Source: Eledone cirrhosa
Taxonomy: Eukaryota
Length of the DNA: 64,000 bases
Reading direction: 5' to 3'
Assembly (NCBI GenBank): GCA_964016885.1
Contig: OZ024765.1
Span: forward strand, 18,042,001 to 18,106,000
This document shows positions 37,201 through 43,586 of the stretch, in pieces. A program made the position numbers and the translations under genes. Every line of letters begins with the position of its first letter. Position 1 is the stretch's first letter. The notes under the pieces are model-generated. The model saw nothing but the letters and a program-made list of their open reading frames with translations. It had not been told where the DNA came from and did no database searches.

Positions 37201-39454
37201 CAGATGTAATGAAACTGTTGTCAGACCCGATGCTCCACCGCCCTCGCTGCCTGTTACAACAGACTTAATGAAACTGTTGTCCGACCCAATGCTCCACCGC
37301 CCTCGCTGCCTGTTACAACAGACGTAATGAAACTGTTGTCCGACCCGATGCTCCACCGCCCTCGCTGCCTGTTACAACAGACGTAATGAAACTGTTGTCC
37401 GACCCGATGCTCCACCGCCCTCGCTGCCTGTTACAACAGATGTAATGAAACTGTTGTCCGACCCGATGCTCCACCGCCCTCGCTGCCTGTTACAACAGAC
37501 GTAATGAAACTGTTGTCCCACCCGATGCTCCACCGCCCTCGCTGCCTGTTACAACAGACGTAATGAAACTGTTGTCAGACCCGATGCTCCACCACCCTCG
37601 CTGCCTGTTACAACAGACGTAATGAAACTGTTGTCCGACCCGATGCTCCACCGCCCTCGCTGCCTGTTACAACAGATGTAATGAAACTGTTGTCCGACCC
37701 GATGCTCCACCGCCCTCGCTGCCTGTTACAAAAGACGTAATGAAACTGTTGTCCGACCCGATGCTCCACCGCCCTCGCTGCCTGTTACAACAGATGTAAT
37801 GAAACTGTTGTCCAACCCGATGCTCCACCGCCCTCGCTGCCTGTTACAAAAGACGTAATGAAACTGTTGTCCGACCCGATGCTCCACCGCCCTCGCTGCC
37901 TGTTACAACAGACGTAATGAAACTGTTGTCCGACCCGATGCTCCACCGCCCTCGCTGCCTGTTACAACAGACGTAATGAAACTGTTGTCCGACCCGATGC
38001 TCCACCGCCCTCGCTGCCTGTTACAACAGACGTAATGAAACTGTTGTCCGACCCGATGCTCCACCGCCCTCGCTGCCTGTTACAACAGACGTAATGAAAC
38101 TGTTGTCCGACCCGATGCTCCACCGCCCTCGCTGCCTGTTACAACAGACGTAAGGAAACTGTTGTCCGACCCAATGCTCCACCGCCCTCGCTGCCTGTTA
38201 CAACAGACGTAATGAAACTGTTGTCCGACCCGATGCTCCACCGCCCTCGCTGCCTGTTACAACAGACGTAATGAAACTGTTGTCCGACCCGATGCTCCAC
38301 CGACCTCGCTGCCTGTTACAACGGACGTAATGAAACTGTTGTCCGACCCGATGCTCCACCGCCCTGGCTGCCTGTTACAACAGACGTAATGAAACTGTTG
38401 TCCGACCCGATGCTCCACCGCCCTCGCTGCCTGTTACAACAGACGTAATGAAACTGTTGTCCGACCCGATGCTCCACCGCCCTCTCTGCCTGTTACAACA
38501 GACGTATTGAAACTGTTGTCCGACCCGATGCTCCACCGCCCTCGCTGCCTGTTACAACAGATGTAATGAAACTGTTGTCCGACCCGATGCTCTACCGCCC
38601 TCGCTGCCTGTTACAACAGATGTAATGAAACTGTTGTCCGACCCGATGCTCCACCGCCCTCGCTGCCTGTTACAACAGATGTAATGAAACTGTTGTCCGA
38701 CCCGATGCTCCACCGCCCTCGCTGCCTGTTACAACAGACGTAATGAAACTGTTGTCAGACCCGATGCTCCACCGCCCTCGCTGCCTGTTACAACAGACGT
38801 AATGAAACTGTTGTCCGACCCGATGCTCCACCGCCCTCTCTGCCTGTTACAACAGATGTAATGAAACTGTTGTCAGACCCAATGCTCCACCGCCCTCGCT
38901 GCCTGTTACAACAGACGTAATGAAACTGTTGTCCGACCCAATGCTCCACCGCCCTCGCTGCCTGTTACAACAGACGTAATGAAACTGTTGTCCGACCCGA
39001 TGCTCCACGGCCCTCGCTGCCTGTTACAACAGATTTAATGAAACTGTTGTCCGACCCAATGCTCCACCGCCCTCGCTGCCTGTTACAACAGACGTAATGA
39101 AACTGTTGTCCGACCCGATGCTCCACCGCCCTCGCTGCCTGTTACAACAGATGTAATGAAACTGTTGTCCGACCCAATGCTCCACCGCCCTCGCTGCCTG
39201 TTACAACAGACGTAATGAAACTGTTGTCCGACCCAATGCTCCACCGCCCTCGCTGCCTGTTACAACAGATTTAATGAAACTGTTGTCCGACCCAATGCTC
39301 CACCGCCCTCGCTGCCTGTTACAACAGACGTAAGGAAACTGTTGTCAGACCCGATGCTCCACCGCCCTCGCTGCCTGTTACAACAGATTTAATGAAACTG
39401 TTGTCAGACCCAATGCTCCACCGCCCTCGCTGCCTGTTACAACAGACGTAATGA
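34228..39454. repeat. 59-bp satellite array, ~88 copies, with a 36-mer (2124-bp) duplication
   Basis: Unit gaaactgttgtccgacccgatgctccaccgccctcgctgcctgttacaacagacgtaat; rare variants recur 2124 bp apart. Confidence 0.98.
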
Positions 39455-39790
39455 ACTAACTTAGCATGAATCCATCAAGTTCATTGAACAGAGAAAAGTT
39501 GAGACATCGTTTGATTAATTCACATAAAACAAACATTAAACTCGGATCAATTGTTGAAGAGTCGCGCTATCTCAGCGATTATTTAATGTTTCTTGCTTAG
39601 ATGAACTTGAACTAAGAACATACAATGCACTTGCTGGCATGTGTGTCTATGTATGTTTGTGGGCATATGTATATATGTGTGTGTGTGTGTGTTTGCTTGT
39701 ATGTATGTATGTATGTATGTATGTATGTATGTATTTGTCTATTTACGTACGTACGTTTATGCACAGAACTCTCTCTCTTTCTCTCTCCCT

Positions 39791-41132: not shown

Positions 41133-41436
41133 AAATATAAAACTGTGAAATCTTAGTTTAATACATTTAATTGCTGACATCGTTTCTTCCAGACGAGTAT
41201 ATATATATGTATATGACAAATATATAGATAAATATACGCACATTCGCGATAACTGGCCCTGTCCAGTCAAAAAATGACGGTTAATTGTAATATCTATACA
41301 TAGTATATAAAAGAGATGTTTTTTTGTTTGTTGGCTGGTTTGTTTGTTGGTTAGTTCACGCTCACTCACACGAGTGATATAAACATACAAACACACAGCT
41401 GTGACGAATATTCGAATGCTGGACCTCTATAGTTTC

Positions 41437-42241
41437 TCACCCCTTCTTTCCTAAGTCGACGTCATCACCCCTTCCTTCCTCAGTCGACGTTATTACCCCT
41501 TCCTTGCTCAGTCGACGTTACCACTCCTTCCTTCCTCAGTCGACGTAACCACCTCTTCCTTCCTCAGTCGACGTTATCACCCCTTCCTTCCTCAGTCGAC
41601 GTTATCACCCCTTCCTTCTTCAGTTGACGTAACCACCCCTTCCTTCCTCAGTCGACGTTATAACCCCTTCCTTCCTCAGTCGACGTTATCACCCCTTCCT
41701 TCCTCAGCCGACGTTATCACCCCTTCCTTCCTTAGTCGACGTTATCACCCCTTCCTTCCTCAGTCGACGTTATCACCCCTTCCTTACTTAGTCGACGTTA
41801 TCACCCCTTCCTTTCTCAGTCGACGTCATCACCCCTTCCTTCCTCAGTCGACGTCATCACCCCTTCCTTCCTCAGTCGACGTTACCACCCCTTCCTTCCT
41901 CAGTCGACGTCATCACCCCTTCCTTCCTCAGTCGACGTCATCACCCTTTCCTTCCTCAGTCGACGTTATCACCCCTTCTTCCTCAGTCGACGTCATCACC
42001 CCTTCCTTCCTCAGTCGACGTCATCACCCCTTCCTTGCTCAGTCGACGTTACCACTCCTTCCTTCCTCAGTCGACGTAACCACCTCTTCCTTCCTCAGTC
42101 GACGTTATCACCCCTTCCTTCCTCAGTCGACGTTATCACCCCTTCCTTCTTCAGTTGACGTAACCACCCCTTCCTTCCTCAGTCGACGTTATAACCCCTT
42201 CCTTCCCCAGTCGAGGTAATCACCCCTTCCCTCCTCAGTCA
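41437..42241. repeat. 28-bp minisatellite (accccttccttcctcagtcgacgttatc), ~29 copies
   Basis: Tandem copies, most with GTCGAC; a variant block recurs 531 bp apart. Confidence 0.95.
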
Positions 42242-42297: not shown

Positions 42298-42725
42298 AAG
42301 TGCGGTGGATTAGCAGTATCGCTAGGGGTTCGGACGACATGCTTTGCAGCATAGAGTTCCGTCCTTTTATGGTCTGAATTCAAACCCGGCCGAGATTACC
42401 TTTGCCTTTCATCATTACGGGGTCGATAAAATAAAGTACCAGTAACGTACTGGGTCGACTTAATCGACTTTCCCTCCCCCCAAATTGTTGGCCTGATGCT
42501 TAAGTCAGAAATAATTATTACATAAACTTGTAGAGCGGTGGATTGGCAGTATCGGTAGAGGGTCGGACAACATGCCTAGCAGCATAGAGTTACTACCCTT
42601 TACGTTCTATGTTCAAATCCTGACGAGGTAACTTTGCCTTTCATCCTTACAGGGTCGATAAAATCAAGTACCAGTAATACACTGGGATAATTGCTGGCCT
42701 TGTACCAAAGTAGAAACAATTATTA
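42298..42725 (+). mobile_element. Two tandem Meta-like SINEs (42298-42520, 42531-42725)
   Basis: Same diagnostic motifs as the 21029 copies. Confidence 0.85.
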
Positions 42726-43151
42726 TCCATATAATACTAAAAGTCTGTGATTGCTTGCTTGTGTGTAACGTAATACAGCCAAAAGGGCGCATAATGGGAA
42801 AATACTTTGAAAGGAAGTTGCCCCTGAAATGGGAATACAAATGGAATAAAACAAGTTTTGCGTAAATCGAAGCACGGGTTCCCGAGATATGGGGTTTTTC
42901 CGGGTGTCTGCATAAACAGAGAGAGAGAAAGATAGAGAGATGGTGGTTGTGAGAGAGTAGAATGAAAGAGAAAAAAACATAGAGAGAGGGAGAGGAGACA
43001 GAGAAGGAGAATGAAAGAGAGAGAGAGAGCTGGTTGTGTTGTTGTGTGTGTGTATATATATATGTGTGTATATGCGTGTGTGTGTCTATGACCAGTGTAT
43101 ATAGATCACAGACACCCACATATATATACACACACACACATATATATATAT

Positions 43152-43440
43152 ATATTAATTCAAAATATTAACAAAAATAGACATTCGTGTGATCAAGTAT
43201 ATTTTATTATACATATTTCAGAGGTACTGAGCTATCTTCAACAGTACGCCCTCATCAGATAAAATAAGATGAGGCATGACATACCCTGATTAAGTAACTT
43301 CGTCAGGGTATGTCATGCATCATCTTATTTTATCTGATGAGGACGTACTGTTGAAGATAGCTCAGTACCTCTGAAATATGTATAATAAAATATACTTGAT
43401 CACACGAATGTCTATTTTTGTTAATATTTTGAATTAATAT
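43152..43440. ncRNA. Near-perfect palindrome with a hammerhead on each strand (43200-43266 -, 43326-43392 +)
   Basis: ~138-bp arms; tattttat-CTGATGA-gg(a/g)cgtactg...cagtacctct-GAAA-tatgt-ATA-ataaaata. Confidence 0.8.
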
Positions 43441-43531
43441 TAATAACTCCGGAAAACCAAAACTGTGGAGTGCTTCTAATCTATTGTAAAACTTTATTCC
43501 TTGATTTATTCATTGAACCTTGTTTAACCTT

Positions 43532-43586
<55 letters not shown>

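Follow-up and report, generated by a model that had tools for sequence, protein, structure and literature searches.

A young head-to-head insertion of a Penelope-like element in Eledone cirrhosa and the pairing of two fixed 3′ ends across its family

Results

The window, a 64,000-nt stretch of the Eledone cirrhosa genome (contig OZ024765.1, positions 18,042,001 to 18,106,000), contains at 43152 to 43440 an inverted repeat that, paired inward from its two outermost bases, comprises 144 base pairs symmetric around base 43296 and includes four mismatches (43249/43343, 43273/43319, 43290/43302, and 43291/43301). A repeat finder returned the same palindrome with arms of 149 nt that are 96% complementary and 1 nt apart. 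The original prediction had described arms of about 138 bp around a 13-nt centre; an inverted repeat with few differences is indeed present, but its arms are 144 bp long and its centre is the single base 43296, the supposed 13-nt centre being paired sequence with two mismatches. The palindrome folds at −222.8 kcal/mol (z = −37.7), and none of 200 shuffled sequences was as stable.

Positions within the pLTR are numbered from the A of a TCACT motif (+1), which lies 31 nt below the TATA box (TATAAA); on this scale the hammerhead core is at +65, the scissile bond at +115/116, and the two 3′ ends of the family at about +171 (short) and about +266 (long). The insertion is asymmetric and larger than first noted, with the forward arm continuing through a family tail of about 95 nt to 43535. 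The inverted arm (43152 to 43295, minus strand) covers pLTR +28 to +171 and terminates at the short 3′ end, base 43296 is both the centre of symmetry and the head-to-head junction (pLTR +27 of the minus strand), the mirrored portion of the forward arm (43297 to 43440, plus strand) again covers +28 to +171, and the unmirrored tail (43441 to 43535, plus strand) covers +172 to about +266 and terminates at the long 3′ end. The left flank (43128 to 43151; (CA)n followed by a (TA)n microsatellite) and the right flank (43536 to 43578; a (TA)n microsatellite) are likely target sequence and do not mirror one another, and within (TA)n flanks no target-site duplication could be delimited around 43152 to 43535. 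The insert includes neither the TATA box nor the start site of the pLTR, and no ORF. What lies at 43152 to 43535 is a short, promoterless, 5′-truncated head-to-head insertion of a Penelope-like pLTR in (TA)n, as the original prediction had it in proposing the inverted pLTR end of a Penelope-like element (PLE) insertion; the family and its near-full element, described below, show such ends.

The surrounding window also carries tandem arrays at 38000 to 39480 and 41330 to 42240 with units of 59 bp and 28 bp, the 59-bp array beginning before the scanned region, and at 42299 to 42686 a dispersed SINE-like repeat, which recurs in many of the family loci examined, is present twice in direct orientation, the copies being diverged and separated by 233 bp.

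A motif scan found one type I hammerhead (CUGAUGA...GAAA...UA) per strand, both outward-facing. The plus-strand motif (43326 to 43392) has CUGAUGA at 43334 to 43340, GAAA at 43373 to 43376, and its scissile bond after 43384; the mirror motif on the minus strand (43200 to 43266) has its core at 43258, its scissile bond at 43208, and one private change in stem II. The full core, an 8-bp stem I, and a long stem II are intact in both, and to that extent one complete canonical hammerhead per strand was correctly foreseen; stem III fell short, having only 2 bp with a palindromic 4-nt loop and a predicted pairing probability of 0.00, which is not a stable stem. Rfam returned 12 matches at E ≤ 10 with no hammerhead family among them, and a separate listing of its hits showed repeat-driven ones only. 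Metazoan type I PLE hammerheads share the short palindromic helix III predicted here from sequence, and for their helix III of 1–2 bp with a palindromic loop inefficient monomer cleavage is described and a dimer or other help expected (PMC4209133). A catalytic dimer of the window hammerhead was considered and set aside, as the ViennaRNA homodimer exchanged stem II and did not adopt the catalytic dimer fold.

Whichever strand is transcribed, the antisense arm comes before the sense ribozyme. To force the catalytic fold on the full palindrome transcript costs 103.7 (plus) or 107.4 (minus) kcal/mol, and in a lone arm that fold is still disfavoured by 11.4 kcal/mol; the ribozyme of this copy is predicted by the folding model to be buried in the 144-bp hairpin. 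Across 116 family segments, divergence is 1.4% in the core and 1.8% in stem I, against 7.1% in loop II and 4.9–6.0% in the flanks, which shows that the source lineage conserves the ribozyme.

A further five type I hammerhead motifs occur in the window, at 18086 (+), 19828 (−), 40352 (+), about 49317 (+), and 63588 (−). They share the stem I of the palindrome and its palindromic type of stem III but differ from it in stem II, and they are likely pLTR stumps of other Penelope-like families. At G000:C1:63697641-63697897, an inverted pair is followed by a hammerhead word tandemly repeated every 65 bp, a possibly retrozyme-like array that could allow dimer cleavage.

A 21-mer spanning the ribozyme core has 6,343 exact matches in the 3.0-Gb genome (its reversed control has 0), a count that may include close sister families. 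A genome pattern search for two outward-facing cores 48–78 nt apart returned at least 149 loci, each counted on both strands, and among the 50 of these that were listed the junctions vary from locus to locus. The near-full element (L033 and L164) reads, in order, (TA)n, an inverted pLTR with tail, a pLTR, a frame encoding a reverse transcriptase (RT) with a C-terminal GIY-YIG endonuclease, a 3′ UTR, a pLTR with the short end, and (TA)n. Its frames (L033, 6231 to 8571) directly follow the pLTR and contain YRDD and a GIY-YIG-like motif, although the frame is interrupted. The family thereby shows traits of EN+ PLEs, namely an RT and GIY-YIG ORF linked to the repeat (L033), partial tandem and inverted pLTRs (L033 and L164; 85 outward pairs), and a hammerhead within the pLTR. 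On the tail the comparison is equivocal: it is one-sided in 36 of 37 pairs, as in published PLEs, but about 95 nt long rather than 30–40 nt.

Pfam assigned 0 families to the L033 ORF, and PDB gave nothing meaningful. The Hydra clade is defined by DKT, a CxCX5C linker, CxxC and CxH remnants, and the lack of CCHH (PMC8557442). L033 contains DKT, CNCRNRPDC (CxCX5C), and CLH (CxH); the CxxC remnant reads YNLC there and CNLC in L028, and the RWK position reads RWR in L033 and L026 and RWK in a related element of L027. CCHH is absent from L033, where by eye a single C lies between the GIY-like and YIG motifs, the endonuclease is C-terminal, and the 3′ ends of the family lead into TA repeats, the (TA)n preference of the Hydra clade. 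The family is a Penelope-like element whose motifs match those of the Hydra clade, to which it is provisionally assigned by motif, neither Pfam nor PDB having recognised the ORF; Neptune was dropped as the clade label, as the Hydra motifs fit. Further Penelope-like ORFs, some of them differing in linker motifs, are found a few kb or less from family copies at L025:3938-4990 (−), L027:6498-8649 (−), L030, L031, and L034, and L032:2-2194 (−) presumably holds Helitron-like Rep/helicase fragments, judged by eye on known motifs.

To examine the 3′ ends, we searched for a 23-mer situated downstream of the scissile bond; of its 1,511 matches the first 100, which all come from contig C1, were used and gave 85 loci, 6 of them dropped as duplicates or partners, with later duplicates removed by junction signature. 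Both main 3′ ends carry 4–6 nt of TA microhomology and lie upstream of the first ATG; a minor third end about 3 nt beyond the short one was seen in 13 rows compared with 67. Outward pairs in this sample combine one long and one short end in 36 of 37 cases, with no long and long pair, no short and short pair, and one pair with another end, while unpaired arms are divided between 23 short and 20 long (p = 1.5e-11 for the pairing). When four samples were pooled, 74 of 85 pairs were long and short, 8 had an unclassified end, and 3 were apparent exceptions. Two of the exceptions proved on inspection to be long and short as well, one involving the internal pLTR of a full element and the other a long arm split by a later insertion; the third, a short and short pair (L179:1340-1640), lies inside mirrored unique flanks, which mark it as an inverted duplication at the DNA level with a family copy in its middle. 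A literature search, with most subscription journals outside its scope, found no publication stating such a per-insertion pairing of two PLE 3′ ends.

The short arm carries 5′ sequence absent from the long arm in 44 of 64 close pairs and is nested within it in 20. In the 44 non-nested pairs neither arm can have been copied from the other, because the short arm has the extra 5′ sequence and the long arm has the tail. The long arm consists of the tail only in 20 of the 74 long and short pairs and shares little or no sequence with the short arm. The arms also agree in pLTR class, with both arms within the leader in 27 pairs, both upstream of +1 in 7, and mixed in 3 (Fisher p = 2.6e-5), in a table from which tail-only arms were excluded, as was the sample chosen for its leader junction, and which could be biased by distant partners beyond the fetched flanks. 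That both arms come from one pLTR class fits one RNA serving both primers.

The 5′ ends of the arms fall at +1 to +6 in 18 of 119 cases and at −4 to +12 in 22 of 119, compared with 15 across the 296 nt from −300 to −5. Genome-wide, 275 of 1,236 copies of the +1 to +23 word have their junction exactly at +1, as judged by non-family bases at −1 and −12; a similar control design at +28 gave 7 copies, a bare count with no denominator. We take the spacing of TCACT and TATAAA to mark a transcription start, and the sense RNA of the element would start at +1. A TATA box with a TCACT Inr-like motif is described in the pLTR of Adineta vaga PLEs (PMC3846280). In the 100 listed of the 275 junctions at +1, the base at −1, read by eye, was G 43 times, T 48 times, and A 9 times. 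Other retroelements are known to carry a G derived from the cap at their 5′ junctions, and the excess of G would fit such an origin; as microhomology with the partner arm explains many of these cases, we regard it as a lead.

The core is disturbed upstream of +116 in 74 genome matches, which by eye include about 19 internal indels or duplications, joins at +116 in 10 loci, about 32 joins at +112 to +116 (5 of them with ambiguous TA flanks), and 19 at +105 to +111. Among arm ends between +13 and +140 in the first 100 of the 1,511 matches, 2 of 30 fall at +116/117. Given so few junctions at the scissile bond, in a count made without a downstream control, cleaved RNA would be at most a minor route, and an uncleaved RNA template would be in line with the in vitro result of PMC11167929.

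The description of the locus as a young insertion was upheld, the forward arm being identical from +33 to +171 to another genomic copy. Gene conversion, offered originally as the other source of high arm identity, is not required, because a young insertion suffices. The two alleles that the arms of 43152 to 43440 have in common against the family majority are widespread in a subfamily, being carried by 80 of 190 and by 92 of 218 segments.

Discussion

We consider it likely that insertions of this family arise when both cut ends of a (TA)n target prime reverse transcription. From two fixed 3′ ends, one of each per insertion, arms that are mostly non-nested, and the boundary at +1, we infer the following priming and joining steps. 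A sense RNA would start at +1, and the endonuclease would cut both strands of (TA)n; of the two DNA ends, one would then prime at the long internal site and its counterpart at the short one, the resulting cDNAs would both extend toward the 5′ end of the RNA, stopping at +27/+28 in the copy at 43152 to 43535, and the cDNA 3′ ends would be joined head to head. Because the ribozyme lies between +1 and both priming sites, the two outward-facing hammerheads would be a by-product.

A biochemical parallel is PAc, a Poseidon element of the green anole, whose protein cuts and extends both strands of an AT-rich target from two internal start sites bounding the tail, using uncleaved RNA (PMC11167929). 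PAc belongs to another clade, and its start sites, located within the ORF, show no homology to the target; the Eledone sites, by contrast, lie upstream of the first ATG and have TA microhomology. Start-site use did not differ between the two strands in that study, and the strict pairing of long and short ends is therefore not predicted by it alone (PMC11167929). The tail-only inversions of the Eledone family also resemble the products of a second known process, and the comparison is with L1 elements. In L1 twin priming, both target ends prime on the element RNA and leave an inverted 5′ part with small gaps or overlaps at the join; in the Eledone family, by contrast, inner priming occurs at a fixed site and palindromes often result from overlap between the arms. 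Such overlapping arms need strand displacement or two RNAs in a twin-priming model.

Fold-back self-priming, in which a single cDNA or antisense template turns back on its own end to copy itself and the resulting hairpin is cut at the short site and integrated, is the alternative that survives best, though we think it unlikely. The copy at 43152 to 43440, with its 1-nt centre and a short arm nested in the long one, is what this process would leave, and as twin priming would leave the same, this copy alone cannot discriminate between the two. Fold-back is also suggested by the 20 nested pairs and by short fold-back fillers at several +1 junctions, and on an antisense template it has been proposed for rotifer PLEs (PMC3846280). 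Self-priming of that kind cannot, however, yield the majority of pairs, whose arms are non-nested; as a general route fold-back is contradicted by these pairs, and the tail-only long arms with little or no overlap and the accumulation of 5′ ends at the sense-strand TATA/Inr position argue against it further.

A functional RNA switch at the palindrome, which would either self-cleave or serve as an ADAR or Dicer substrate, is highly improbable. Both cores are intact, the ribozyme is conserved across the family, and the hairpin is very stable and would be a dsRNA substrate if transcribed. The folding switch of the original prediction is nevertheless not supported in the folding model, because the antisense arm is made first on both strands, the ribozyme can be forced only at a cost of 104–107 kcal/mol when the transcript is complete and of 11.4 kcal/mol when it comprises one arm, and no promoter is present, the insert having neither TATA box nor start site. 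The conservation, moreover, reflects the source element and offers no evidence on function in this copy, the at least 149 comparable loci have variable junctions, and the A-to-I editing suggested for the arms, sought in retrocopies, left no A>G excess there (49 A>G versus 84 T>C, p = 0.067).

An assembly or library fold-back artefact is scarcely credible. Bases 43270 to 43299 are uncovered at 99% likeness in four public runs (X1, X2, X3, and X22), but a hole of this kind proves nothing, and the arms differ at four sites, end at two distinct family-specific 3′ ends, and have unmirrored flanks, unlike the DNA-level fold-back at L179; in X1 and X3, moreover, contigs have joints bypassing the centre, which shorter palindromes of the family would also produce, and one such joint recurs in both runs. 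Just as hard to credit is an old insertion whose symmetry gene conversion has maintained, or a palindromic element (MITE-like or retrozyme-like) that is self-contained and transposes as a unit, for despite the high arm identity and 6 rare variants shared between arms across 22 other palindromes, those palindromes hold 87 unshared changes with a median arm-to-arm difference of 2.7%, the forward arm here equals another dispersed copy, and junctions vary in the 50 listed palindromic loci.

The architecture at 43152 to 43440 is already known, since Penelope-13_HM, of the Hydra clade, has a 5′-truncated inverted copy with a hammerhead on each strand (PMC8557442, supplement), and inverted pLTRs are published. 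The same supplement records a Hydra-clade element, Hydra-1_Obim, in an octopus. With these elements the Eledone family shares DKT, CxCX5C, CxxC/CxH, the absence of CCHH, (TA)n, and a hammerhead near the 3′ end; it differs from the clade in having RWR rather than RWK in L033, a unit of about 4.5 kb rather than under about 3 kb, and the tail of about 95 nt, and its hammerhead sequence differs from that of Hydra-1_Obim (PMC8557442). Pen2a_Av and other Adineta vaga PLEs have the same head-to-head inverted pLTR, junction palindrome, tail at one end, and TATA and TCACT motifs, but a tail of 31 bp and visible target duplications (PMC3846280). Their authors infer antisense self-priming, against which the non-nested arms and the sense +1 boundary of the Eledone family argue (PMC3846280). 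A non-LTR retrozyme consists of head-to-tail tandem monomers with a hammerhead in each (10.64898/2026.07.22.740005), and this candidate was rejected for 43152 to 43440, where there is a head-to-head pair only. The family is a new one of a known clade in a known insertion architecture.

A more specific form of priming from both target ends, which we put forward tentatively and hold to be nearly an even prospect, is that a dimer of the PLE protein uses a single sense RNA, capped and uncleaved, to prime both target strands, each at a different one of the two fixed internal sites, and that the inner cDNA is displaced by the outer enzyme. If true, this model would explain why the tail is one-sided, why pLTRs stand head to head, and how the mini-palindromes arise; it would also locate the start site to the base, with a cap-derived G, and would retire the antisense self-priming model.

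Conclusions

The locus at 43152 to 43535 is real, young, and ordinary in kind, an inert by-product, and the value lies in its family. Both PMC8557442 and PMC3846280 call the origin of inverted pLTRs and one-sided tails in PLEs open, and the thousands of young copies in this genome place countable constraints on this partly open mechanism: long and short ends pair strictly, arms are non-nested, the two arms derive from the same pLTR class, and the 5′ boundary is precise to the base. These constraints yield direct predictions for the published in vitro system. The palindromic stumps also scatter many perfect hairpins across the genome, which would be relevant to RNA editing or silencing only where they are transcribed.
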